From Mayamaea pseudoterrestris (Eukaryota): 64,000 nucleotides of DNA. The notes beneath the pieces were generated by a model, which made no database searches, was not told where the DNA came from, and saw nothing but the letters and a program-made list of their open reading frames with translations. Each line of letters opens with the position of its first letter. Positions within the stretch are counted from its first letter, which is position 1. The DNA is taken from positions 1,488,001 to 1,552,000 of the forward strand of contig BROI01000001.1 of assembly GCA_027923505.1 (NCBI GenBank), written 5' to 3'. Below, piece by piece: positions 27,201 to 64,000 of this stretch. Made by a program: the position numbers and the translations under genes.

Positions 27201-29913
27201 GCGCCTTCAGCTGTCGAACAAATCCATTTGCATTCGCAGCACTACGGAGAAATGCACTTTCGGCAAAGTAGGGGGCCAACACAGATGTGTGTGCTTGTAC
27301 CAAGACTGTAATCACACGATAAATTTGGCCAGTGTGCAGCCATGCAGCGATCAATGTTCTAAGAGTCGACTGCTCCGTGGCGGAAACCTTGTACTCTTCC
27401 AACTCCATTGCATCAAACCTTGCAAGTTGCTCAGCCGACTGAAATGTGTTCTCCTTTGCAACGCGTTCCTCAAAGGCATCTAAATCACTGGTAAGCTCCA
27501 TTAAAATTTGCGACAGCGAAGTAAACTCAAACTCTGGCAGGCTTAACTCAACAGCTTCTTCTGTAACTGCAACATTGTCGTCCTCGTCACTAAGATCCAC
27601 CACTCCATCGTTGATTGCCGCCTCATCAACTTCCTCCGGCGGTGCAACTGGCTTGTACGTGCACCTTCCATTCGTCAAAGTTTGTTCGACAACCAAGACT
27701 AGACGCAAAATAGCTTCCCGGCATCCAGAGTCATCCCAATCAATGTTCACAGGTTCATTCTGCGATTTCAGCAACCGAAAGTCTTCAAAGTCAACGTACT
27801 GCTGCAGGTCGATCAACGTCACGGCCAGAAGGCTATTCACCTTGTCACCAGACTCGTCCAGTGTCTGTGCAGGTGATTCGTCGACAAAGTCAACCGTCTT
27901 GTCGTCGGAATCTACGCGATGGAGTGCGGCTGACTGGTCATCGTGAGTGGCATGGTCGCCAACTGCAGCATTTCCGTCCGGTTGTGTTGCTGCGCCTTCC
28001 TCCGTTTCGACACCAGCATTGGTTTGCTCCGATTCGTTTCGCGTCAATGCAGTTTCATCAGGCGCTTCCACTCCATCGAGTGATAAACTAGCAGCAGCAA
28101 CGTTGCTTTCTACAACTGCAGCATCAACCGTCGTCGACACTGTACTACTACTCAACCCCGCCACGATCCAACTGTTCAAATACTCGGGACAAAAGCAGCT
28201 CATGAGCGGCGGCAGCACCGACTGCCCCAAAATTTCCGTCAATATGGACGACAAAATGTTGCTGCCAAAGTCGTTGCGGGCGAGCAAGGCGCGCACCATG
28301 CGATGGGCCAAGACGCGGTTGTAGTCAATCTCGCACTCGCTCAAGAGTCCTGTGCGAAACAAGCGCTCCTCGAGCAGCTTGTCTTGATCCATCTTGGAAT
28401 GAGCGTCACTACTTGTTGTTGCATTACCATCGGCACTGTTGTCATGTTCATTCGGCCATCCACACTCCTTGCCTTGTGCGTCGGCAAAGAGCAACGACGG
28501 AACATCCACACCAAAGGTAACCGCCTTGTGCAATTTCCCAGATAGCAAAAACTCCTTGGCCATTTGCATCTCCGTGGGAGCAACGTCTGGCAATAGTAAA
28601 AGAGTGGATGTGGCATGATGCGACTTGTGCTTGGTCGTTACACAGCGCCGCAGCGTCCGATAGACTTGAAACGTGTGCGTCAGCACCTTGGTCACTTTGA
28701 GCAGCAGCAGCTCCAACACATTGACATGCTCCACGCGCGTCGCCAAATTGCCAAAGACAATCGTCATGGACTGGTACAGTTGCTCCATGATAGCAACGTT
28801 GCGATATGGATTCAGTTGGTATACCATGCGACGAGCGTGTGCGGTTGGTGATGCCTCGACGTTTTGCTGCTGCTGCATGCCACCGGCATTGCATGCATCG
28901 TCGCTACTCGTGTCATTTCCATTCACCTTCACAGCCGGTTTTATCAATTTCCCCGTCTCCACATCATAAGGACTAACGCAGCCAACGTCCAACTTGCAGC
29001 ACCACGTGGCGCAAAAGTCGCGCAGCACGTAGTCCATGAGCATTCCCAATTGTCGCGAGATTGCCAGTGGCAGCATGGGATACATGGTTTGCAGCAAATT
29101 CAGCGGCTTGGCTCCGTCGTAGCTGTAATTGCTGTTGTGAGTAAAGAAGGAGTCGTTGCTCCGTAACACTTGTCCTCGTAGACAATGGTTGCGGACCGTA
29201 TCGTAGCCAGCCAGGCGCATGAGACTATCGTACGTTTGTTCGTGGTTCATGGCGATTTGCGAGTCTTTGAATGTGGAGCGCAGCAATGATGATGACTTGG
29301 CGTTACTAATACTCTTGGACATAGACGCTCGACTCGTCATGCCGCCTCCTTCTATATCATTTTTACGACGCATTTCCATGTCACGCTCCTTCCAGAGCGT
29401 CAAAGCGTCGTAAACATGCGCCGCAAAGCCAAGGCCGAGTCCCACGCCAAGAGTAACGCCGAGCGTCTGCCGCACGAGCGATAACATGGAAAAGAATAAC
29501 GAAGTGATCATGTTTGGTGGCGGATGAATAGTGCTTGTAGCTGCTGACTCGCTTGGACTTGCTCGTCTGCTGCTCCGGAATGCCATGATTATGGCTGCCG
29601 CCAGCACCAGCAGCGAAAGTGGAACCAAAACTCCATGCTTGAGTACGAGCGCATCCATTGGCGCCTGCAAATTCGCCGACTGCAGCAGCGGACGAACCGG
29701 CTGGTACCAGCCTGGCCAATTGTTACTGTCTTGGTCTTGGTCTTGGTCCTGCTGCTGCAATGGAGCTTGTTCCTCACTAGTAGGAATTTCTACTAAATCA
29801 TCCTGCGGCGGATCGTCCGTGTCATTGACGCTTGGAATATTCATTGCTTCGTCATTGTCAGTCTCCATATTGCTAGCGTCCGCGTCTACTGGCGCCTCCT
29901 CCTTCGCCGCCAT
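24262..29913 (-). CDS. PXA-PX-Nexin_C sorting nexin (SNX13/14/25, Mdm1-like)
   Basis: Two N-terminal TM segments, PXA-like LMDYVLRDFCATW, PX-like WVVLRSYDDFNKFHKHLK...RKEALDGYL, Nexin_C-like LIWPDG...LQNRLVVKSIFYILMDMLWLDVFPEL; intronless; likely ATG 29913. Confidence 0.85.
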   Translation of the reverse strand: MAAKEEAPVDADASNMETDNDEAMNIPSVNDTDDPPQDDLVEIPTSEEQAPLQQQDQDQDQDSNNWPGWYQPVRPLLQSANLQAPMDALVLKHGVLVPLSLLVLAAAIIMAFRSSRRASPSESAATSTIHPPPNMITSLFFSMLSLVRQTLGVTLGVGLGLGFAAHVYDALTLWKERDMEMRRKNDIEGGGMTSRASMSKSISNAKSSSLLRSTFKDSQIAMNHEQTYDSLMRLAGYDTVRNHCLRGQVLRSNDSFFTHNSNYSYDGAKPLNLLQTMYPMLPLAISRQLGMLMDYVLRDFCATWCCKLDVGCVSPYDVETGKLIKPAVKVNGNDTSSDDACNAGGMQQQQNVEASPTAHARRMVYQLNPYRNVAIMEQLYQSMTIVFGNLATRVEHVNVLELLLLKVTKVLTHTFQVYRTLRRCVTTKHKSHHATSTLLLLPDVAPTEMQMAKEFLLSGKLHKAVTFGVDVPSLLFADAQGKECGWPNEHDNSADGNATTSSDAHSKMDQDKLLEERLFRTGLLSECEIDYNRVLAHRMVRALLARNDFGSNILSSILTEILGQSVLPPLMSCFCPEYLNSWIVAGLSSSTVSTTVDAAVVESNVAAASLSLDGVEAPDETALTRNESEQTNAGVETEEGAATQPDGNAAVGDHATHDDQSAALHRVDSDDKTVDFVDESPAQTLDESGDKVNSLLAVTLIDLQQYVDFEDFRLLKSQNEPVNIDWDDSGCREAILRLVLVVEQTLTNGRCTYKPVAPPEEVDEAAINDGVVDLSDEDDNVAVTEEAVELSLPEFEFTSLSQILMELTSDLDAFEERVAKENTFQSAEQLARFDAMELEEYKVSATEQSTLRTLIAAWLHTGQIYRVITVLVQAHTSVLAPYFAESAFLRSAANANGFVRQLKALDGVEILVDTMMVLSAPRLDETNREDLNALVKKSVQTSSKATSMTSSSIIRVQQMTTSSTPRYLDFNRNESFAASLRAERERRLRSWQHVVDDDVTNEGLPVLCHAQASERDAALHKELHHLARIFYSGTNMIAIRDAARNKRQVDESSSQTESVASEVSIPVSLLTVETSSARRRIEIPDDDSSFLLRAQPRPLNAVGVHRDQRNHDQSFKCFAATYDEPALNRTEHYAGGRFVRSCLVRYFPIDRTATVALQEGSARKLDQRRGTGPIPDTITVGQSRSAPLLSNEFLNERHLCQRWTPKGTNRTQGIMSSSILEPTDFNLMPRSGRAIDFVYRLSLFERPMIELGGKHFTVNDSSSLGTHRAEASSLELSDATLSAALNVLGHELGSKGESSDGTLKNVVEMGEDGYPILWMKFNRAENDSQVEIKPYRVSFVRAALLVTSARHEAQLQNLLACVRAGSVKKATKVLTDQRLKSTAKVLEYASSRIREKQSVLLRDLKVGVNHIDREQLRRNGLLDPRYPTVIRELTATIEDVVESTKGQGNGLFGASDTMYKIRCQAVVDIYALSSELRGDPTFQAPDGSIAKTMREEWVVLRSYDDFNKFHKHLKAQVAVTESSGNAGTRLVGAATAAFAAGAAVAGASGVARSRQRVALIPSLGQASKASLGPAKKLLQKRKEALDGYLNVLLAPRHLLNRCTELLIFLGAVYPLPSEILPNQVVLGVADPLGRTEMSRKVIQSRLASVKMDQTVVEQLGAKSGGTRRDADTTDDTDDLQDDDEFLDDYDDDDRERKSNMIPAIESKISKVPLAFVRRQLFELLHHLFGFENASFVRNRMLTALKTMSFAVTTGSEFKRTLYRLHCEKLSADAVADWIAFALNLIWPDGEFFSKAAPSSPEELRDQSRQAMDALHSSFPEQIRSVLGKELTRDGLNMLHEMLQNRLVVKSIFYILMDMLWLDVFPELGDVVECGLSIDLNNRN

Positions 29914-30404
29914 GGTGACATGGGCCGGCGTGTTTTTGTGCGGCCACATCCAAACGACATAGTTTAGCTTCTTCGAGTACCGCTGCGACCGTTCAATATG
30001 CGCTGCGACATGGACTACTATGGCATAGTTGTAGGATGCAGAACCATGTGTACCATTGTACACACATACCGCATGATACAGTGTTTTACTTTTGGCGCAT
30101 ATAGAAAACCTTCCAGTGGATCGCTCGTCGGCGCAACAACAATCGCTGCAAGATGATATAAGTTGGCTGGTGAAACTCTCAAATCCGAAGGACCGTCGCA
30201 TGTGCTGCGAGTCACTAACATGATCTGACGTCTGTCTGACTAAAATATTCTACGAGTACAAAGGCACTTGCGCTTTAAGAGTGAGGGTGCGTTATAAAGA
30301 CACACGTTTGGATAGTTTGTAAATGTTAAGCGACAAAAGCAGTGTGCAGGGGCTACGGAGACAGCCTTTGTCGAATTCATATGTAAATAACATGTAGCAG
30401 AATG

Positions 30405-30405
<1 letters not shown>

Positions 30406-30465
<60 letters not shown>
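30406..30465 (+). repeat. (CAG)20 microsatellite
   Basis: Direct reading; lies just 3' of the minus-strand gene at 30497-30781. Confidence 0.97.
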
Positions 30466-30467
<2 letters not shown>

Positions 30468-30496
30468 TCGCCAATCACTTTAACAGCCTGTCGTCT

Positions 30497-30781
30497 CTAC
30501 CAACCATTGTCAATGGTAGTTGACGACTCCTCGCCCAAGCTCATGATTCGTTCAAATTCGTCTTCAATATCATCAACGGAACGAAAATTCTTGCGATTCT
30601 CTGTGGCAGACGGCTGCCGAGATCTATTTCTCCTCATGATTGGATTGCTGACGGATGCGTTTTGGTTCACAATGAAATCCTTGCTAACGCTGCCATGCTT
30701 TTCGTTCTCGGCAATGGTTTTTTCGAACGACGCGCGTCGCTTGGCGATGAATGAACCGAGAGACTTTTTGTTGCTTGACAT
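30497..30781 (-). CDS. small hypothetical protein (MSSNKKSLGSFIAKRRASFEK...)
   Basis: ORF conserved in the duplicate at 57732-58025 with a frame-preserving indel and synonymous changes. Confidence 0.75.
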   Translation of the reverse strand: MSSNKKSLGSFIAKRRASFEKTIAENEKHGSVSKDFIVNQNASVSNPIMRRNRSRQPSATENRKNFRSVDDIEDEFERIMSLGEESSTTIDNGW

Positions 30782-31399
30782 TCGAATACCAATAGTGGGT
30801 TGTGCAGTAGAGAGGAAGTTGCGGGGACTGAGTGTCTGAGGATTTTGAGCAAAAGCAAAATTGAGACGGTGAGATTTGTTGTGCGATCCAAGGGGCATAG
30901 CTTCGTCTGCCAATCTCAACAAGTGCTATGATTGGATCATATATCTATTGCCTCCAGTCGTGCAAGACCTGAATGTCGATCGGAGGTCATTAGATCCTTT
31001 AAGCGGTCTCCGTTACATATGCATGACATTTACTAATGCAGTCATTTGTGGTTGATTTATCTTTGAGGCAATACCCACAAATGACTTTGCTCGTGCTATG
31101 CACCTTTTAATGGCATTACAATCAACCGCGATGAACAAATAATATATGAAGGAACTTGGAAAGTCAGCTAATATAAAACTACGCTTTTGTTACGAACACC
31201 CCCAAAGTAGCTTCCCTCAACCAGGGCTTGCAAGCTTATTCAGCTTGCAAATGGAAGATTAACCGAGAGGGTTACTAAGACCCTTCTGCATGTTCACATA
31301 GTTTCTGTAAAATACAAGCTACGAGTAAGTATTATCGCATTTATACATTACAATGTCAATATCTGTTTACATTACATCAAGAAGGCACATCCAGAACAC

Positions 31400-55055: not shown

Positions 55056-57152
55056 TCAGCTGACGTTGCGGTGCAGCCCGTCCTGGACTTCCCATTGCAA
55101 TGAGTCCAGTGTCTGTGCAGGTGATTCGTCAACAAAGTCAACCGTCTTGTCATCGGAATCTACGCGATGAATGGCGGCTGACTGGTCATCCTGAGTGGCC
55201 TGGTCGCCAACTGCAGCATCTCCGCCCGGTTGTTTTGCGACGGCGCCTTCCTGCGCTTCCACACCAATATTCGTTTGCTGCGATTCGTTTCGCGTCGACT
55301 CGGTTTCAACAGGCGCTTCCAATCCATCTAGTGATAAACTAGCAGTAGCACTGCTTTCTACAACTCCACCATCATCGCTCGCCGCCACTGTGCTACTACT
55401 CAACCCCGCCACGATCCAACCGTTCAAATACTCGGGACAAAAGCAGCTCATGAGCGGCGGCAGCACCGACTGCCCCAAAATTTCCGTCAAGATGGACGAC
55501 AAAATGTTGCTCCCAAAGTCGTTGCGGGCGAGCAAGGCGCGCACCATGCGATGGGCCAGGACGCGGTTGTAGTCAATCTCGCACTCGCTCAAGAGTCCGG
55601 TGCGAAACAAGCGCTCCTCGAGTAGCTTGTCTTGATCCATTTTGGTGTGGGCGTCACTACTTGCTGCATTATTACCATCGGTACTGTTGTCATGTTCATT
55701 ACTAGGCCATCCACACTCCTTGCCTTGGGCATCGGCAAAGAGCAAGGACGGAACATCCACACCAAACGTGACCGCCTTGTGCAATTTCCCAGATAGCAAA
55801 AACTCCTTGGCCATTTGCATCTCCGTGGGAGCAACATCTGGCAATAAGAGAGTGGCAGTGGCGTGATGCGACTTGTGTTTGGTTGTTACACTGCGCCGCA
55901 GCGTCCGATAGACTTGAAACGTGTGCGTCAAAACCTTGGTCACTTTGAGCAGCAGCAGCTCCAAGATGTTGACGTGTTCGACGCGCGTCGCCAAATTGCC
56001 AAAAACAATCGTCATGGACTGATACAGTTGCTCCATGATAGCAACGTTGCGATATGGATTGAGCTGGTATACCATGCGGCGGGCGTGTGTGGTAGATGAC
56101 GGAGCATCAACGCTTTGCTGCTGCTGCTGCTGCATGCCACCGCTCACATTGTCAATACTAGTTTCACGTTCATTCACCTTTTTGACCAACAGCTTTCCCG
56201 TCTCAACATCATACGGACTAACGCAGCCAACGTCCAGCTTGCAGCACCACGTGGCGCAAAAGTCGCGCAGCACGTAATCCATGAGCATTCCCAGTTGTCG
56301 CGAGACGGCCAGTGGCAGCATGGGATACAACGATTGCAGCAACGACAGCGGCTTGGTTCCGTCGTAACTGTAACTAACATGACTAAAAAAGGAGTCGTTG
56401 CTCCGTAACACTTGGCCGCGCAAGCAATGGTTGCGGACACTGTCGTAGCCAGCCAGTCGCATGAGGCTCTCGTAGGTCTGCTCGTGGTTCATGGCGATTT
56501 GCGAATCTTTAAACGTCGATCGCAGTAGAGAGGATGACTTGGACATGCTACTTTTCGTCATGGACGCTCGACTCGTCATGCCGCCTCCTCCCTGATCATT
56601 GCGACGATTCATTTCCATGTCACGCTCCTTCCACAGCGTCAACGCGTCGTACACGTGCGCCGCAAAGCCAAGGCCGAGTCCAACGCCGAGAGTTACGCCA
56701 AGCGTCTGCCGAATAAGTGACAATACGGAAAAGATGATTGACATGATCATGTTTGGTGGCTCATGCATAATGCTTGTTGTTGTTGACTCGCTTGGACTTG
56801 CTCGTCTGCCGCTCCAGACTGCCGTAATGATGGCTGCAACGAGTACCATCAGCGAGATTGGCACCAATGCTCCATGCGTGATTACGAGCGAATCCATTGG
56901 CGCCTGCAAATTCGCCGACTGCAGCAGCGGACGAATCGACTCGTACCAGTTTGGCCAGTTGATATTGTCTTGGTCCTGCTGCTGCTGCTGCGGCTGCACT
57001 GGAGCTTGTTCCTCGTTATTATCATGAATTACTTCTAAATCATCCTGCAGCAACTCTACGGCTTCATTGAAGTTTGGATTATTCTTTTCTTCATTGTCAG
57101 TCTCCATATTGCTAGCGTCCGCGTCTACTGGCGCCTCCTCCTTCGCCGCCAT
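55056..57152 (-). pseudogene. 3'-truncated duplicate of the PXA-PX sorting nexin (TM + PXA only)
   Basis: Aligns to copy 1 up to ...SPAQTLD, then runs into unrelated SLQWEVQDGLHRNVS*; PX and Nexin_C are absent. Confidence 0.75.
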
Positions 57153-58217
57153 GGTGACATGCGGCGGCTGGTTTTTTTGTGCGGCCGTATCCAAACGACA
57201 TAGTTTAGCTTTTTTGCAGTGCCATTGCGACTTATTTGCAAGCGCTGCGACACGAGCTACCTCGGCATAGGCCAGGACGCAGAACGATACGGGTACAAGT
57301 ATGACTACTGTACACGAACACTGCAGTCTTTACTCTGGCTCGTACATGAAACACTTCAGGTGGACCGCTCGTCGGCGCATCAACAATTGCTGCAAGAGGG
57401 AGAAAATTGGCTGGTGAACTCTCAGATCCGAAGGACCGTACGAGTATGTTGCTGCTGCGAGTCACAAACATGATCTGACGTCTGTCTGACTAATGTATCT
57501 ATACGAGTACAAGGCACTTGCGCTTGTAAGAGTGAGGGTGCATTATAGAGACACACGTTTGGATAGTTTGTAAATGTGAAGCGACAAAAGCAGTGCAGCA
57601 GGGGCTACGGAGACAGTCTTTGTCGAATTCATATGTAAATAAATAACATGTAGCAGAATGACAGCAGCAGCAGCAGCAGCAGAATGACAGCAGCAGCGTC
57701 ACCAATCACTCAGTCAGCCTGTCGGCAGTCTCTACCAACCGTTGTCAATGGTCGTGGACGACTCCTCGCCCAAGCTCATGATTCGTTCAAATTCGTCTTC
57801 GATATCGACCACGGAACGAAACGTCTTGCGATTCTCCGTGGCGAATGGCTGCCGCTTTCTGTTTCTCCTCATGATTGGATCACGCAAACTGCCGACTGAT
57901 GCGTTTTGGTTCACAATGAAATCTTTGCTAACGCTTCCTCGCTTTTCGTTCTCGGCAATGGTCTTTTCGAACGACGCGCGTCGCTTGGCAATGAATGAAC
58001 CGAGAGACTTTTTGTTGCTTGACATTGGAATAACAATAGAGATTTGTGCAATAAGGAGAAGTTGCGGGGACTGAGTTTGAGGATTTGAGCAAACAGCAAA
58101 ATGAGACGGTGAGATTTGTTGTGCGATCCAAGGGGCATTGCTACCTCTGCCAATCTCAACTAGAGCTATGATTGGATCATTCATCTATTGCCTCCAGTCG
58201 TGCATGGCCTTTAATGT
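55104..58217. repeat. segmental duplication, copy 2
   Basis: Matches 27856-30975 with many synonymous substitutions and frame-preserving indels. Confidence 0.92.
57732..58025 (-). CDS. duplicate of the small hypothetical protein at 30497-30781
   Basis: Near-identical protein with a 3-aa insertion. Confidence 0.72.
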   Translation of the reverse strand: MSSNKKSLGSFIAKRRASFEKTIAENEKRGSVSKDFIVNQNASVGSLRDPIMRRNRKRQPFATENRKTFRSVVDIEDEFERIMSLGEESSTTIDNGW

Positions 58218-58529
58218 CACGACAAGCACACAAGCCAAGCTGGTATGGAACGAACACTGGACAGACGGATTGAAAGGGCTACCACTCGATTACCAACGGA
58301 CTTGCAATCTGGAGCAAATTGATGGCATTGGCAATTGAGGCCATCCAATTTGCAAGGAGACGAGAAACGATCAGTTGTTGCAAGGAAGGCTCGAACGTTG
58401 TCGACCCAGGAACCAAAAGAGATCTCTCTTGGGAGCAGCATAAAGGCTTTACTTGTTTAACACTACCAGCAGGCTTCCTGTCGTCCGTGTGATTGTACCC
58501 GCCGTACGTTACAGCTCCGCTTTTCCATC

Positions 58530-60746
58530 ATGTCGTCTCCCAGCGCCGTTGACAAGCTCAAGGCGCTCATGGCCGCCCCTCCTGCGGCGGGCTCGACTCA
58601 GCGCATCCTCGAGTCCCAGTTTTCTCGTGATGCCGAGGACCTGTCGGAGTCGGCGCGACAAGGTAAGCAAAAAGGATCCGGGGGGGTTGTGTCTCCCTCG
58701 GCGAGTGGAGTCAGTTTGATTGAAGTTTGGTTGAACCAAGATGGATTGGCGGAAGGCGTGTGCGGCGGCCGTGTGGGTGATACTCGTTTCTGTTGCGCGA
58801 CGGACACTTGCGTCGTGAAAGCCCATGAGAAGAACAAGTTTCGCTTTGAAGACAGTGACACCGCCTGCCTTTTCATCACCTCTCCTACAGGCTCCTCCCC
58901 CACCGCCTTCACCACCCAGTGGGTCCGTGTCGAAGACATCGGACCAGAAGCCCGGGCCACCATGCTCTCCACCCAGCGCTCTGTCGTCGACTGGCAGATG
59001 TTCTTCACCGCATTGCGGGATCCTCATAGTCAAAGCGATCAAGTGATGAGCGCAGCGATCGCCTCTGCCCAGTTTGCGATGGCCACGCCACGTGCAGCTC
59101 GCCGAAGCCCATTGAAGATGGAAGACTCCGACTCGCCAAGCGATTGGGTTGACGTCGCCAGTGTGACCTTTCCGACGGGCAAGGTTTCGGACGCAACGCT
59201 AAAGAGCAAAGTCGAACAAGCTGTCCCTATCCTCGCCGAAGGAGTTCGACAACTCCAGGAGGCGGCGCAAGACCAAGCCAAGCAAGTGCGTCTCAACAAG
59301 GTTGCGATTGACGATGAGCTCGACGGATTCGACGTCAGGGTCGCGCGCTTGGAGCGCTTAGTCGGTTCGCGCAGCGACGATGTAGAAGCCAGCTTGTGGA
59401 CTATGGTTGGTCGCCAATCCGCGACAGGAATCCGTGATGAAGAGCGCATGATGGCCATGCAAAAGGAAATCGACTCGCTCAAGCAAGCGCAGTCGAAGTT
59501 TGAGACGCAGCCCTTCGCGTCCAACGCGGCGAAGCAGTCCATTGGCGAGCAGGTAATCCTTCTGCTGCAGGATGGAGGAGTCATGGAAACGCTCAACATG
59601 TGTGGCGAGTACGTTAAGGAGCAGCTGCGCGTTGGGCCATCGCCAGCCGCAGCTTTGGCGAGCGGAATGTCGATTTCAGCCCAAGTCTCAGCTGCAGTCA
59701 ACGCCGCAACCTCCAAGATCATGGGCGACGTGAGAGAGCTGCTCGACGCTGGCATTGGATCGGCCGCTGGAGCAAGCGCGCTTGACGAACTCGCGTCATT
59801 GAAGGCTCGCGTGGAGCATTGTGAAGAAGCAGGATCAAGCACCCAAGTCGTGTTCGACAACATCACTTACGCGTCCCTGCTCAAGACGCTCGAAGTGGTC
59901 GACGCCCTCAAGATTGCGGCCAAGCACATGACTCTTCTCATCGACCCCTTCTCCCTGTTGCAACTGGCCTACGCCAGCAACGCCGACCCAACGTCGGTGC
60001 TTGGGAATGTGGCCAACGCCAAGAAAGCTGGTTTCGCTAGCAGCTTCCAAGCCACGATCATCGCGTCACTCAATCTGCCCCTTCCGCTCGTCTACGGCGG
60101 GACGGAGAAAGAGCAGAGCGCGCTGGGAAGCCACAAGCATCTCCTTCCTGGTCTAACCTCATGGGAAGCTTGGAACGGGACGTCGCAGCGCATCATGTCA
60201 AAGCGTATCAGATTGACTGAGCGCATCAGCCAGACCACCAAGGCCCTCAATGGACACATCCGCTCGTCAGATATGTCAGGAGGAGCAAAGCGTCTCGCCC
60301 AAGAGATGCTCGCCAAAGCCGACTCGTTCCTTACGCAGTTCTTCACGTTCAAGCTCAACTTCATGAGCGAGATGGGAGAGAACAAGGAAAGCTGGGAATT
60401 GTTGGCAGGAATGATTCACCAAATGTGGACCGACTTTCACAAGGTGCGGGCCGAGGCAGCGCTGGTCAACTATGAGGCCGACGAAGATGAACGCTCAAAC
60501 CATGTGGCGTGTTACTTGTGGAGTATGATGCAGTCGCATCAGATCGCCCAGGGTTACTTGGAGAAGGATTTCCGCAACCACCCGTCGGTGTCAAGCGTCA
60601 TGACGATTCACCTCATTGAAAACCGGGTGAGCGTCGTCAAGTTTGCGGAAGCGACGCAGAAGCTGGAGAAGGACTGTCAGTTTGCTGTCAAGACAGCCAA
60701 CGAGGCCAAGAAGCTGGCTGAGAGAGGACAAGCTCGGGGCAACTGA
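58530..60746 (+). CDS. retroelement ORF1, gag-like (738 aa)
   Basis: Cys/His cluster VCGGRVGDTRFCCATDTCVVKAH, coiled coils, position directly upstream of pol. Confidence 0.75.
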   Translation: MSSPSAVDKLKALMAAPPAAGSTQRILESQFSRDAEDLSESARQGKQKGSGGVVSPSASGVSLIEVWLNQDGLAEGVCGGRVGDTRFCCATDTCVVKAHEKNKFRFEDSDTACLFITSPTGSSPTAFTTQWVRVEDIGPEARATMLSTQRSVVDWQMFFTALRDPHSQSDQVMSAAIASAQFAMATPRAARRSPLKMEDSDSPSDWVDVASVTFPTGKVSDATLKSKVEQAVPILAEGVRQLQEAAQDQAKQVRLNKVAIDDELDGFDVRVARLERLVGSRSDDVEASLWTMVGRQSATGIRDEERMMAMQKEIDSLKQAQSKFETQPFASNAAKQSIGEQVILLLQDGGVMETLNMCGEYVKEQLRVGPSPAAALASGMSISAQVSAAVNAATSKIMGDVRELLDAGIGSAAGASALDELASLKARVEHCEEAGSSTQVVFDNITYASLLKTLEVVDALKIAAKHMTLLIDPFSLLQLAYASNADPTSVLGNVANAKKAGFASSFQATIIASLNLPLPLVYGGTEKEQSALGSHKHLLPGLTSWEAWNGTSQRIMSKRIRLTERISQTTKALNGHIRSSDMSGGAKRLAQEMLAKADSFLTQFFTFKLNFMSEMGENKESWELLAGMIHQMWTDFHKVRAEAALVNYEADEDERSNHVACYLWSMMQSHQIAQGYLEKDFRNHPSVSSVMTIHLIENRVSVVKFAEATQKLEKDCQFAVKTANEAKKLAERGQARGN

Positions 60747-61820
60747 CGGCGCGAGCCGTCGGTTGCCTCCCGCTCTGGCGAGGGGCGGCGGCGGAAGGGA
60801 GTCGAGGCGCGACAAGGTGTGGCGGAGTATGTGGAAGGCGTAACGCGCCGACTAGCAAGAGGTCGGCGGCGAATGGGAATAGTTTGCAAGACTTTTCCTT
60901 TCTGGGGATGGGTGGCCGGCTCAGGCGGAGCGGAGGTGGTGTGGATAGCAGGAGTTGAAGGTGGGCGCGAGGACGCGTTTGGAGGAATGGAGCTGGCGCA
61001 GGTGAAGTGGTGGGATAGAGCAGAGCGCCTGGAGGATTGGCTAGCGAGACAGCAGGAGGCGGATGTCGTGTGCTTTGATAACATAAGACCTGGAGCTTCG
61101 CATGCGGTATGGAAGCTCCCGGGAGTGGAATTAGTTATCTGGTTTGGTTCCTACTCTCGTGGCAATGTACCCCTAGGTTGGATTAGGACGAGTCATCTTA
61201 TTAGGCACTCCGAGTTGGGAGGCGTCACCAACGGCGAGTTCGTCGTCCACTTGGCGACAAGGAGCGACGCCCCACTCGCCAAACTTCCTCAGGAGGTTGG
61301 TGTGCGCATGTACTTGGCTTCCATTATTGACAAGACGGCAAACGGCGTGCCCTGCTCCCCTCCAACGAACGCGGAAGACGTATTGGTAGACCTTCGCCAA
61401 CTGGGAGACCGCTACGTGGTACCATCGGTATTCTCTCGCACAGGCTTCGTCCGAAGAAAACTCAGTTCAAAGGAGGTAAATCTGGTGTGGGACTTGCCTG
61501 CGACCATCACGAAGTCGTGTCCCCCTCGGCTGGTTGAGCGCCTTGTGGAGGAAGTGCGATTGCCCTTCAAGATTCGAGTGCACGCGCTCAGCGTCTTGAC
61601 TGACTTCAGCGATGCGTTGGCGACTGGCGAGCCTGCGAGAAGCGTCATTAAAGAGCAAGCAGGCGACTCGCAGCCCGGGTTGAAGTCCAAGCATGAGGAG
61701 AACGCGGGTCGAGACGCCAAAGCGACGAAGGCGGACGACGCGGAAGTGCCACGCTGGCTTTGGAATGAGCGACTGCACTTGCTAGACAAGGGAGCGAGCG
61801 AGGAGGAGGTAAAGCGAACA
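60747..61820 (+). CDS. pol N-terminal part: degenerate C5 DNA-methyltransferase-like domain, in frame with ORF1 after TGA
   Basis: No stop from 60747 in the ORF1 frame; motif order GAEVVWIA, EADVVCFD, GW..HLIRHSELGGVT..FVVH, YLASIID, RRKLSSKEVNLVWDLP. Confidence 0.6.
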
Positions 61821-64000
61821 GAGGGAGACTGCACGCGCGATGGGTGCGAAATCTGTCACGAAGCTTCTGGAGGTGGGTGTGCGTCGAGCGGACAGCGGGC
61901 CGCTTCGTTCCTCGCCAAGCAATCTCGGCAGGATTAGCCGCCATTGGACACGCTCTCAAATCCGATTGGTGGGAGTGGAAAGGCGGGTCCGCTCCTTTCT
62001 TCTGGCGCTGGCCGGCAGCCTTTCAGAAGACGATCCGTGATGGCCTGCCGCCGAGGTTTATCGATAAACCACCAGCCAACAAGAAACCTCAGCGAGTACC
62101 AAAGGATGCGGAGGAGTTGGCCCTGGTTGTCGCCAAAGTGAACAAGCTCCGGGCCAGAAAGTACATCGCGGTGGGAGAAGTGCGCTCGTTGATCAACATG
62201 TTTCCCGTTCCTAAAGGAGAGTCCGACATCCGATTGGTTTTCGATGCGACAGCGAGTGGATTGAACGAGGTTTTGTTTGCTCCATGGTTTGCGCTCCCCA
62301 CTGTCAGTCAGATGGTACGAACAGTTGCACCGCAATACTATTGCGCGGACAATGATTTTGGCGAGATGTTCTACAACTTTTGGCTGCACGAAGAGCTCCG
62401 GCCCTACACTGGGATCGACCTGACCGGCCTTTGTCCAGATGAGCGAAGCATCAGGGGAGGGCGGATATGGGAGCATTTCACGCGACCCACTATGGGACTG
62501 GGGCCTTCACCCTATCAAGCCGTCCAAGGAGCACTGCAATTCAAGGGGTTGGTACTGGGGCGAGGATCCGCGGAAGCGTCCGCGGACTCCAACGCTTTCC
62601 ACTGGGTCAGTGTTGAGCTGAACGTCCCGGGGATGCTCGCCTATGACCCCGCGCAACCATGGATCTCCAAGCGCCGAAAGGATGGTCGAGTGGCAGTAGA
62701 TATGCACTTGTTTGTTGATGACTCACGAACGACAGCACCAACGGAAGAGCTTGCTTGGCAGGGCGGCAGTAGGATCGCAAAGCTGGCCTCCTGGTATGGA
62801 CTACAAGATGCAGCGCGCAAGAGAAGGCCGCCGAGTCAAACACCTGGCGCATGGTCGGGATCTGTGGTTTCAACCACAGAGGAAGGAGTCTTTGTGTCGG
62901 TGTCAGTGGAGAGATGGGGCAAGACGAGAGCGGCGATCGCGTGGATCAAGGAGCAGCTAAGCCAGGATCCCAAGGCGATTGAGTTCAAGCAATTGGAGCG
63001 CATCCGCGGCTTTTTGGTTTACGTGGGACAAACCTACCGATCCTTGGTACCTTACCTCAAAGGCATCCACCTCACGCTTGACAGTTGGCGGGGAAACCGA
63101 GATGAAGAGGGCTGGCGGCACGGAGGAAGCAAGCGAGTGGAAGAGCAGCAGGAGGCCGCGGAAGCTCCTGCGGGCGAGGACGACGCATCCGCCCCGGCTC
63201 GTGTGCGAGTGGTAGCTAGGCTGGCGGAAGATGTGGAAGCCTTGCTTAAGCTTACCAACCATGCGACTCCACCGCTGGTGAGCGTCCGCCCCAGCCAGAG
63301 CGCCAGAGTCGTCATTGGATTTGGAGACGCATCCGGGAGCGGCTTTGGGATCTCTGAAGCAGACAACAAGGGAGACTATGAAGTAATCCAATACGTCTAC
63401 GGTGTGTGGGAAGAGCGCGTGAGCAACGAGTCATCTAACTTTCGAGAGTTGAACAACTTTGTGGTGAGGATCGAGTCGGGGCTCTCCAATGGAACCATTC
63501 AGCCCGGAACAGAGTTCTTCCTTTTCACGGACAACTTCGTGACTGAGCGTGCCTTCTACAAGGGTACAAGCAAAGCCAAAGTGCTCTTTGAACTGGTCCT
63601 GCGCTTGCGAACACTCGAGATGATTGGCAAGATCTTTCTTCACGTTATTTGGTGCTCCGGCAAGCGAATGATTGCTCAAGGGACAGATGGTCTCTCGCGG
63701 GGAGATTTAGCTAACGGAGTCCTTGTGGGCGAGTCGATGCTGGATTTCGTTCCGATACACTTGTCTCCTTTGGAACGCTCTCCCGAGCTTGAAAGGTGGA
63801 TCCGCAGCTGGTGTCCAAGGAACGCGTTGTTCCTCAAGGAAGCGGATTGGTTCGACTGCGCTCACACAGAGACGCGCCCCATGTTCTGGTTCCCAGCTCC
63901 CGCCTTGAGTGATGTAGCTCTGGAGCAACTGTGCGAGGCTTGGCACGCCAGGCCACACGTATTCCATTGCATTGTGGTGCCGAGCTTAATGACGAGTCGG
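61811..64000 (+). CDS. pol: reverse transcriptase + RNase H + start of DIRS-type MT-like domain (open to window end, absent from the ORF track)
   Basis: MFPVPKGESDIRLVFD, DNDFGEMFYNF, MGLGPSPY, LFVDD (62711-62722), PGAWSG; RNase H GDASGSGFG, SSNFREL, FTDN, TDGLSRG; then FWFPAP...CIVVP. Confidence 0.9.

Follow-up and report, generated by a model that had tools for sequence, protein, structure and literature searches.

An in-frame UGA codon between ORF1 and pol

The DNA analyzed here, referred to as the window, is a 64,000-nucleotide (nt) stretch from Mayamaea pseudoterrestris comprising positions 1,488,001 to 1,552,000 of the forward strand of contig BROI01000001.1 (GenBank assembly GCA_027923505.1). 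It carries a retro-element assigned to the DIRS order in which a first open reading frame (ORF1) and the polymerase gene, pol, lie in one reading frame and are separated by a single UGA codon at 60744. Comparison of this junction with those of related elements indicates that the UGA is probably read through as a programmed signal. The features of the locus are collected in Table 1.

Inspection of the junction reveals the codons AAC (60741-60743), TGA (60744-60746), and CGG (60747-60749), after which the frame of ORF1 is open again for 1191 nt, from 60747 to 61937. This agrees with an initial annotation of the sequence, which had described the AAC-TGA-CGG ending and a frame that stays open for more than 1 kb. 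The UGA is the sole stop in the ORF1 frame across 58530-61817, and off-frames remained open for 40 codons after the stop in only 10 of 50 cases. Contigs from two sequencing runs (X1 and X2) contain the same TGA. No other internal TGA occurs in the ∼2180 codons of the ORFs of the window element, and UGA is therefore not an ordinary, general sense codon in the host.

Protein conservation extends into the linker that follows the stop. The motif G-V-A-E-Y-V-E-G-V at 60816-60842 lies upstream of an ATG at 60873, which follows the stop by 126 nt. Aligned with this motif are G[VM]AExVxGV in P0122, P0123, P0128, and L001 and YxxxG[VI] in loci that are further removed. The methionine encoded at 60873 aligns with I, F, or M in relatives. 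On the other side of the stop, the C-terminal ∼300 amino acids (aa) of ORF1 are conserved at 19-27% identity in 31 of 79 related loci searched with tblastn. ORF1 had no match in Pfam at expectation values (E) up to 0.1, and a search of the Atlas with ORF1 gave no usable match; the name Gag given to it in the initial annotation is a positional label.

Excision of the stop as part of an intron was considered and rejected. There is no GT within 40 nt upstream of the TGA, and the sole joint near the stop, from 60723 to 60819, stems from a diverged, ∼80% identical paralogue aligned to the window and has GA..GT ends.

Table 1. Features of the element and of its ORF1-pol junction (window positions)
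Feature	Position	Strand	Basis
5' terminal repeat of the element	58218..58446	+	run-contig depth, loose ends
ORF1, 738 aa, gag-like by position alone	58530..60746	+	sequence
Hairpin 1, 15 base pairs (bp), GCGA (GNRA) tetraloop, stop in the 5' arm	60736..60769	+	folding
UGA stop ending ORF1, AAC-UGA-CGG context, proposed readthrough codon	60744..60746	+	
Proposed readthrough linker, 42 codons, without AUG	60747..60872	+	
Hairpin 2, 3' arm of hairpin 1 paired with G-rich 60778-60794	60756..60794	+	folding
N-terminal pol domain, C5 cytosine-DNA-methyltransferase fold	60864..61646	+	AlphaFold and Foldseek
Site of 22-nt deletion splitting pol into "ORF2" (ORF1 frame) and "ORF3" (-1 frame)	61818..61819	+	
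pol continued: reverse transcriptase, RNase H (runs past window end)	61820..64000	+	
FVDD of reverse transcriptase	62711-62722	+	
RNase H	about 63300-63720	+	

Junctions in Related Elements

A total of 79 related metagenome loci was collected, and every ORF1-pol junction reached by a contig was read. This yielded 37 readable junctions, namely the window and 36 of the 79 loci (two of these, L002 and L005, have merely 24-29 ORF1 codons on the contig). Clustered at ≥70% identity, the 36 metagenome junction sequences form 30 groups and thus represent mostly independent lineages.

ORF1 and pol share a frame with exactly one stop between them at 25 junctions and with three stops within 60 nt at two more (L033 and L035). 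At nine junctions pol overlaps ORF1 in the -1 frame, at none does it lie in the +1 frame, and one junction (L015) is decayed. The probability of finding zero +1 cases among 37 under random frames is 3e-7. Stop codon usage also differs between the groups (Fisher p = 4.4e-5): the 27 in-frame junctions use TGA (24) or TAG (3) and never TAA, whereas the nine -1 overlaps use TGA once, TAG six times, and TAA twice. The TGA-C context singled out in the initial annotation recurs in 16 of the 27 in-frame junctions, with TGA-CGG in the window and L017 and TGA-CTA in L011 and L039. All three in-frame TAG codons are TAG-G, that of L021 reading TAG-GGA.

Of the nine -1 junctions, seven contain a canonical X_XXY_YYZ slippery heptamer in the ORF1 frame, which is A_AAA_AAC four times, A_AAA_AAG twice, and G_GGA_AAC once, and in all nine the hairpin beside the -1 site ranks between 1st and 9th within its locus. 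The two overlaps that lack a canonical heptamer (L076:2433-2481 and L077:2004-2040) have UCA-AAC-UAG before the stop and share a conserved hairpin 5-6 nt downstream in which the stems are kept and the loop varies; these junctions may use single-tRNA slippage at a stop. Given that frames are either shared or -1 and never +1, and that the -1 set carries slippery heptamers, the family appears to make ORF1-Pol fusions by recoding at this junction, and the nine -1 sister lineages mark the junction as a recoding site across the family.

The initial annotation had regarded a sense codon or a different frame in other copies as damaging to a readthrough proposal. No sense codon turned up at the readable junctions. 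The frame is shared in 27 of 37 and differs, always by -1, in nine, seven of them with the canonical heptamers; it differs only in lineages that carry -1 frameshift signals.

These data bear on whether the stop is a signal at all. It is very improbable that the UGA merely marks a defunct copy with a sense codon changed to TGA by mutation, or a host that decodes UGA as an amino acid. In favor of such a reading, the window copy is defective elsewhere, with a 22-nt deletion in pol (see below), and L033 and L035 have three TGAs at the junction. Against this, all 27 in-frame elements have a stop at the same boundary, the TGA of the window is found in contigs of both runs, and it is alone in ∼2180 codons. 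Furthermore, a fused ORF1-pol ORF was found in none of the 79 loci, in which the longest stop-to-stop ORF measures 1554 aa versus ∼2000 expected, and among the 150 listed relatives of "ORF2" the part preceding the match never exceeds ∼185 residues.

It is also improbable, if less so, that pol is expressed independently of ORF1, whether translation began at ATG 60873 or a non-AUG codon or whether pol relied on an internal promoter, a subgenomic RNA, or splicing, with the in-frame layout being incidental. The proximity of that ATG to the stop is compatible with such a mechanism, and gene callers began the closely related protein P0121 there. Conversely, the methionine is unconserved and coding conservation runs upstream of it, contrary to what a pol start at this codon, weighed in the initial annotation, would suggest. 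In at least nine of the 27 in-frame loci the first in-frame methionine lies past the conserved WPxW motif at the start of the methyltransferase-fold domain or is absent. Independent expression would likewise leave the distribution of frames (27 shared, nine at -1, none at +1), the canonical slippery sites of the -1 set, and the bias toward UGA-C without a reason. The programmed readthrough proposed in the initial annotation is thus backed by the frame pattern, the UGA-C bias, the lack of a conserved pol start, and the conservation upstream of ATG 60873.

Synonymous-site conservation was compared in three close pairs of relatives and was partly informative; L079/L069 showed a mild conservation peak at the stop. 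Among viral contigs of IMG/VR, 101 pattern matches were obtained, and none was a relative.

RNA Structure at the Stop Codon

Folding of the junction confirmed the hairpin described in the initial annotation, with 15 bp including G-U pairs, a GCGA loop, and the stop buried in the stem. Hairpin 1 pairs 60736-60750 with 60755-60769 through 13 Watson-Crick pairs plus G60737.U60768 and U60744.G60761, all consecutive, and every nucleotide of the UGA is base-paired within it. It folds at -29.4 kcal/mol (z = -6.85), a stability attained by 0 of 200 shuffled sequences. When every 34-nt window of the 64 kb was folded on both strands, no cluster other than hairpin 1 reached -24 kcal/mol or lower, and no such window was present on the reverse strand. 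The hairpin is strand-specific, folding less well on the reverse strand, because two of its pairs are G.U. By position alone, the chance that the most stable hairpin of the 64 kb lands on the recoding codon is ∼1 in 1000.

The second structure of the initial annotation, starting 9 nt after the stop, also folds as claimed. Hairpin 2 pairs 60756-60773 with 60778-60794 (16 pairs, two one-base interruptions, and a UCUG loop) at -23.9 kcal/mol; the only 39-nt windows of the + strand that are as stable are those of hairpin 1 and hairpin 2 themselves. In the minimum free energy (MFE) structure of 60720-60810, taken as free RNA, hairpin 1 prevails over hairpin 2. The ribosome was mimicked in folding by hiding the 5' side up to varied end points. 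With fold starts at 60755 and at 60757-60760, a longer alternative stem forms from the same released arm at -28 to -34 kcal/mol. Hairpin 2 would accordingly be one of several near-equal alternatives, as modeled, once the 5' arm of hairpin 1 is withheld. No slippery heptamer precedes hairpin 1 in the window element.

Stems downstream of the stop are also seen in relatives. L017 has UGA-CGG, a 7-nt spacer, and a stem-loop spanning ∼85 nt (-31.8 kcal/mol, z = -5.2, 0 of 200 shuffles as stable), and in L074 the top-ranked hairpin of the locus is an 11-bp stem located 9 nt past the UGA. The 100-nt stretch that follows the stop falls in the most stable quarter of the folding energies of its locus in 11 of 23 loci (binomial p = 0.015). 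The metagenome relatives share only ∼25% protein identity at the junction, and the distant ones have no common structure. A search of Rfam with 58000-64000 (both strands, E up to 1) gave no match, and only chance-sized matches were present among the listed long-range complementarities between the hairpin region and the 5' end of the element.

The Pol Protein and the 22-nt Deletion

The AlphaFold model of the N-terminal pol domain, built with alignment A4, had a predicted local distance difference test (pLDDT) score above 90 over most of residues 40-300. Foldseek matched this domain to M.HhaI, DNMT2, M.HaeIII, and DNMT3A (E of 1e-8 to 1e-5, probability 1.00, template-modeling score of ∼0.45-0.5); the Pfam DNA_methylase family gave no match at E up to 0.1. 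As read by eye, neither the FxGxG motif (S-adenosylmethionine binding) nor the Pro-Cys nucleophile motif is kept in alignment A4, in which FPxW and DVVxF(D/E)..P(G/x) stand where these motifs would be expected and no Cys is conserved. Judged from these sequences, the domain may be inactive or repurposed. The invariant residues of the alignment are H154, G159, R237, and E243.

The downstream part of pol was modeled with a pLDDT of 87.9. The best structural match was the reverse transcriptase of Moloney murine leukemia virus (4mh8, E of 5.6e-17), followed by those of cauliflower mosaic virus, foamy virus, human immunodeficiency virus type 1, and Ty3 (E of 1e-17 to 1e-14 for the set). The motifs FVDD and DAS...E...TDN...DGLSR of reverse transcriptase and RNase H are visible in the sequence. 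By sequence, the protein is nearly invisible to profile searches: ORF2 and ORF3 of the window and 10 ORFs of relatives had no Pfam match at E up to 0.1 (up to 10 for ORF3), and a sequence search of the PDB with a pol profile gave no match at E up to 1. A protein search returned 251 relatives at E up to 0.001; among the 120 listed, most are 1000-1300 aa long and none has a precomputed Pfam domain. Relatives from genome assemblies, including P0015, P0017, P0018, and P0022, show 47-49% identity in pol. The end of pol lies ∼118 codons beyond the window, and the C terminus was taken from P0001.

In relatives, the regions corresponding to ORF2 and ORF3 form a single ORF. Contigs of X1 and X2 contain 22 extra letters at 61818 at full depth (59.5 of 59.5 and 272.5 of 272.5), and P0121, which is 99% identical, reads across 61818 with 8 extra residues. 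The initial annotation had seen an ORF of more than 1 kb followed by a second frame; there is in fact one pol ORF, broken here by the 22-nt gap, which is either a defective copy or an assembly error. A -1 frameshift between ORF2 and ORF3 at 61769-61937 was also considered and rejected, the overlap resulting from the deletion that is absent in the run contigs and P0121.

Element Boundaries and Classification

The 5' end of the element lies at about 58213-58218, where a flank duplication (27856-30970 and 55104-58210) stops matching; contigs of the runs have loose ends at 58218 that lead into differing flanks. The first 229 nt form a separate contig with ∼2-fold the word depth of the internal contig (123.7 versus 59.5 and 593.3 versus 286.9 in runs X1 and X2), word depth not being a copy number; the doubled depth and the loose ends are compatible with a terminal repeat. 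Elements of the DIRS order characteristically have inverted repeats plus an internal complementary region, or split direct repeats (A-[ORFs]-B-A-B). Only the 5' repeat lies inside the window, and the element's 3' end is beyond base 64000. Runs X6 and X8, from other organisms, contained only short low-depth pieces, none of which spans the junction.

In relatives, pol is followed by a third ORF of ∼515 aa with a Cys-rich N terminus that overlaps the end of pol by 62-581 nt (for example L010:6219-7703, L017:6495-8051, and L039:6076-7608). It lies in the +1 frame relative to pol in 42 of 43 cases from 40 loci, L021 being at -1. Pfam matched none of six third ORFs, and 18-29% of the proteins in the nearest Atlas clusters have PF00589 (phage-integrase family). 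Alignment shows that R (in LRGEE), K, RxxRR, W, and Y are kept, as in the catalytic set of recombinases, and the third ORF is accordingly read as a putative tyrosine recombinase. The corresponding portion of the window element would lie beyond base 64000, and the putative tyrosine-recombinase ORF is known from relatives. Because the relatives carry it, the assignment to DIRS in the initial annotation is probably right at the level of the order.

Relatives also occur in head-to-tail copies, with a period of 8113 nt in L073 and 8913 nt in L021; L006, L037, L045, L059, and L072 likewise show head-to-tail copies or ORF1 directly after the recombinase ORF. Such contigs represent either tandem arrays or assembled circular forms. 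X1 and X2 contain a second, diverged family of this element that is ∼80% identical over 60222-60723, 62243-62419, and 63320-63462 (for example in a 6083-nt contig). The flank duplication is a segmental duplication of ∼3.1 kb, 73-100% identical in matched blocks (mostly 83-96%), whose second copy ends at the 5' boundary of the element. It includes a 712-aa ORF on the minus strand (55056-57194) and CAG trinucleotide runs at 30384-30459 and 57640-57708.

Proposed Mechanism of Readthrough

The observations can be explained by the following model. Most ribosomes would terminate at UGA 60744 and yield the ORF1 protein. A minority would decode the UGA by a near-cognate tRNA and continue into pol, which would have no start codon of its own, giving an ORF1-Pol fusion with the methyltransferase-fold domain, reverse transcriptase, and RNase H. 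The signal would combine the leaky UGA-CGG context with the surrounding G+C-rich structure, which is unusually stable. By the time UGA occupies its A site, a ribosome would already have unwound hairpin 1, and the freed 3' arm (60755-60769) could then pair with the G-rich downstream stretch, forming hairpin 2 or a stem much like it ∼9 nt past the stop, where known readthrough and frameshift stimulators sit. We assign this explanation as a whole, namely programmed readthrough of the UGA with both a leaky context and a G+C-rich structure, a probability of roughly 0.5. Its structural component, that local RNA structure acts on readthrough, is put forward tentatively.

A ribosome can occupy the stop only after melting hairpin 1, which makes some exchange of pairing partners physically certain. 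That this exchange was selected for as a genuine two-state switch, the idea put forward in the initial annotation, in which hairpin 1 of the free genomic RNA would lock both the stop and the 5' strand of the stimulator and only a translating ribosome would release the stimulatory stem, is compatible with the modeled folds and is doubtful. If it were true, refolding would compete kinetically with termination, and the outcome would determine the ratio of ORF1 to ORF1-Pol, which ribosome speed, spacing, or temperature might then influence; a ribosome-actuated switch of this kind would be a new layout for a readthrough signal.

A number of findings weigh against the model. The junction hairpin ranks first in only two of 23 in-frame loci (the window and L074) and within the top 10 in five, which is near chance; in the other 18 it ranks below 10th. 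No stop buried in a long stem was found among the relatives examined. Hairpin 2 is weak in comparison with shuffles of its own very G+C-rich sequence (z = -2.0, 8 of 200 as stable) and is the MFE structure only with a fold start at 60756, its form hinging on the assumed edge of the ribosome. The X1 and X2 contigs, which possibly derive from the source sample, are identical to the window over 60724-60818 and offer no stem variation, and the ∼80% identical paralogue fails to align over this interval. The pol of the window is itself broken by the frameshifting 22-nt deletion. Finally, L033 and L035, which are 87% identical, share three in-frame TGAs within 60 nt (L033:1422-1481 and L035:2565-2624), with no further TGA in their ORFs. 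In the synonymous-site comparison of this pair, conservation is lowest over the 30 nt that follow the first TGA. The three TGAs are explained poorly by simple readthrough. They could reflect multiple readthrough, a decayed master copy, or other causes.

Several of the same findings would be expected if readthrough resulted from the UGA-CGG context alone, with hairpin 2 a by-product of G+C content and hairpin 1 serving the genomic RNA in another way (packaging, dimerization, protection, or a pause for folding of the ORF1 protein) or not at all. The low rank of the junction hairpin in 18 of the 23 loci, the modest z score of hairpin 2, the several alternative pairings of the released arm, and the failure of the diverged paralogue in the same genome to align over the hairpin region all fit such an account. 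A GNRA loop on a long perfect stem is, moreover, a common RNA-RNA or RNA-protein docking module. On the other hand, it would leave to coincidence the location of the single most stable hairpin of the 64 kb exactly on the recoding codon. It also sits poorly with the top-ranked hairpins at the recoding sites of all nine -1 sister lineages and with the strong stems 7-9 nt after the stops of L017 and L074. Action of the context alone is considered rather unlikely, and readthrough assisted by local structure is retained as the preferred model.

A further caution comes from Tca2, a Ty1/copia-type long terminal repeat (LTR) element. In this Candida albicans element a UGA lies between gag and pol, a 3' pseudoknot is predicted, and pol is translated from full-length RNA (PMC2194720, as excerpted). 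The junction nevertheless directed no readthrough when placed in a reporter in yeast, and a minor promoter was located within it (PMC2194720, same excerpt), a finding that counts against the model and lends some weight to independent expression of pol. Tca2 is thus a warning that layout alone is no proof of a readthrough mechanism.

Gag-pol readthrough and frameshifting are classic for retroviruses and LTR elements, and readthrough at gag-pol is in itself of an already known kind. What is new here is probable readthrough beside -1 frameshifting in a Pfam-invisible family of retro-elements with putative tyrosine recombinases, and the placement of the stop within a stem. As judged from their junctions, lineages of the family appear to swap between UGA-C readthrough, UAG-G readthrough, and -1 frameshifting. 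With ∼30 independent lineages whose ORF1-pol boundary carries UGA-C, UAG-G, or a slippery heptamer, the family constitutes a natural experiment and is useful for studying the evolutionary exchange of recoding signals. The variant in the window provides a testable case of structures upstream and downstream of a stop competing for one strand, and the first product after readthrough would be a degenerate cytosine-methyltransferase-fold domain. By title or opening of the abstract, no literature on gag-pol recoding in DIRS, Ngaro, or PAT elements was found; the founding papers of Goodwin and Poulter may hold more.

Comparison with Known Systems

The gene order of the element resembles that of SymbioDIRS-Dnmt3, which has a gag-like ORF, a Pol with a methyltransferase-type domain, reverse transcriptase, and RNase H, and a separate tyrosine-recombinase ORF (PMC5890265, as excerpted). 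The reverse transcriptases of Symbiodinium DIRS elements also escape Pfam (de Mendoza et al. 2018, PMC5890265, same excerpt). In contrast to SymbioDIRS-Dnmt3, the methyltransferase-fold domain of the window element escapes Pfam and shows neither an FxGxG nor a PC motif on inspection by eye. The likeness rests on gene order, a divergent reverse transcriptase, and the methyltransferase-type domain of Pol. As in other elements of the DIRS order (PMC3266345; Ngaro in Cafeteria, PMC8547959; both in part), terminal repeats are probably present in the element, and relatives occur in head-to-tail copies. Gag-pol recoding is not treated in the available portions of PMC3266345, PMC3783388, PMC8547959, and PMC5890265.

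With regard to retroviral expression strategies, the nine -1 sister lineages, with a strong hairpin and, in seven of them, a heptamer such as A_AAA_AAC, resemble retroviruses and LTR retrotransposons that use -1 frameshifting, whereas in the window element pol is in frame and hairpin 1 has no slippery heptamer before it. The layout of the window follows the logic of gammaretroviruses, in which a structural protein and a polymerase share one frame across one stop and are fused at a low rate. In murine leukemia virus, gag-pol readthrough uses UAG-G with a pseudoknot 8 nt downstream, and UAG-G is also the context of type III signals (PMC3159437, as excerpted); all three UAG members of the family are likewise UAG-G. 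Unlike the gammaretroviral case, the window uses UGA-C, and its pol has neither a protease nor a DDE integrase; no pseudoknot was found, although no search was directed at one.

The junction also resembles type II readthrough signals, which consist of UGA-CGG or UGA-CUA and an extended 3' stem-loop (Firth et al. 2011, PMC3159437, as excerpted). They are used in alphavirus nsP3/nsP4, in the replicases of tobra-, peclu-, furo-, and pomoviruses, and in coltivirus VP9' (PMC3159437, same excerpt). The window differs from these in that its carrier is a cellular retro-element and not an RNA virus, and in that its free RNA pairs the stop and the spacer in a stronger hairpin that shares the 5' strand of the stimulator. 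Like them, it has UGA followed by CGG and an in-frame polymerase downstream, and it may be able to form a stem of at least 12 bp 7-9 nt past the UGA. In type II signals the stem comprises ≥12 bp and lies ∼7-8 nt on the 3' side of the stop; hairpin 2 offers 16 pairs after a 9-nt spacer, with the modest z score and competing pairings noted above. The full type II layout of UGA-CGG, 7-nt spacer, and stem-loop is displayed by its relative L017.

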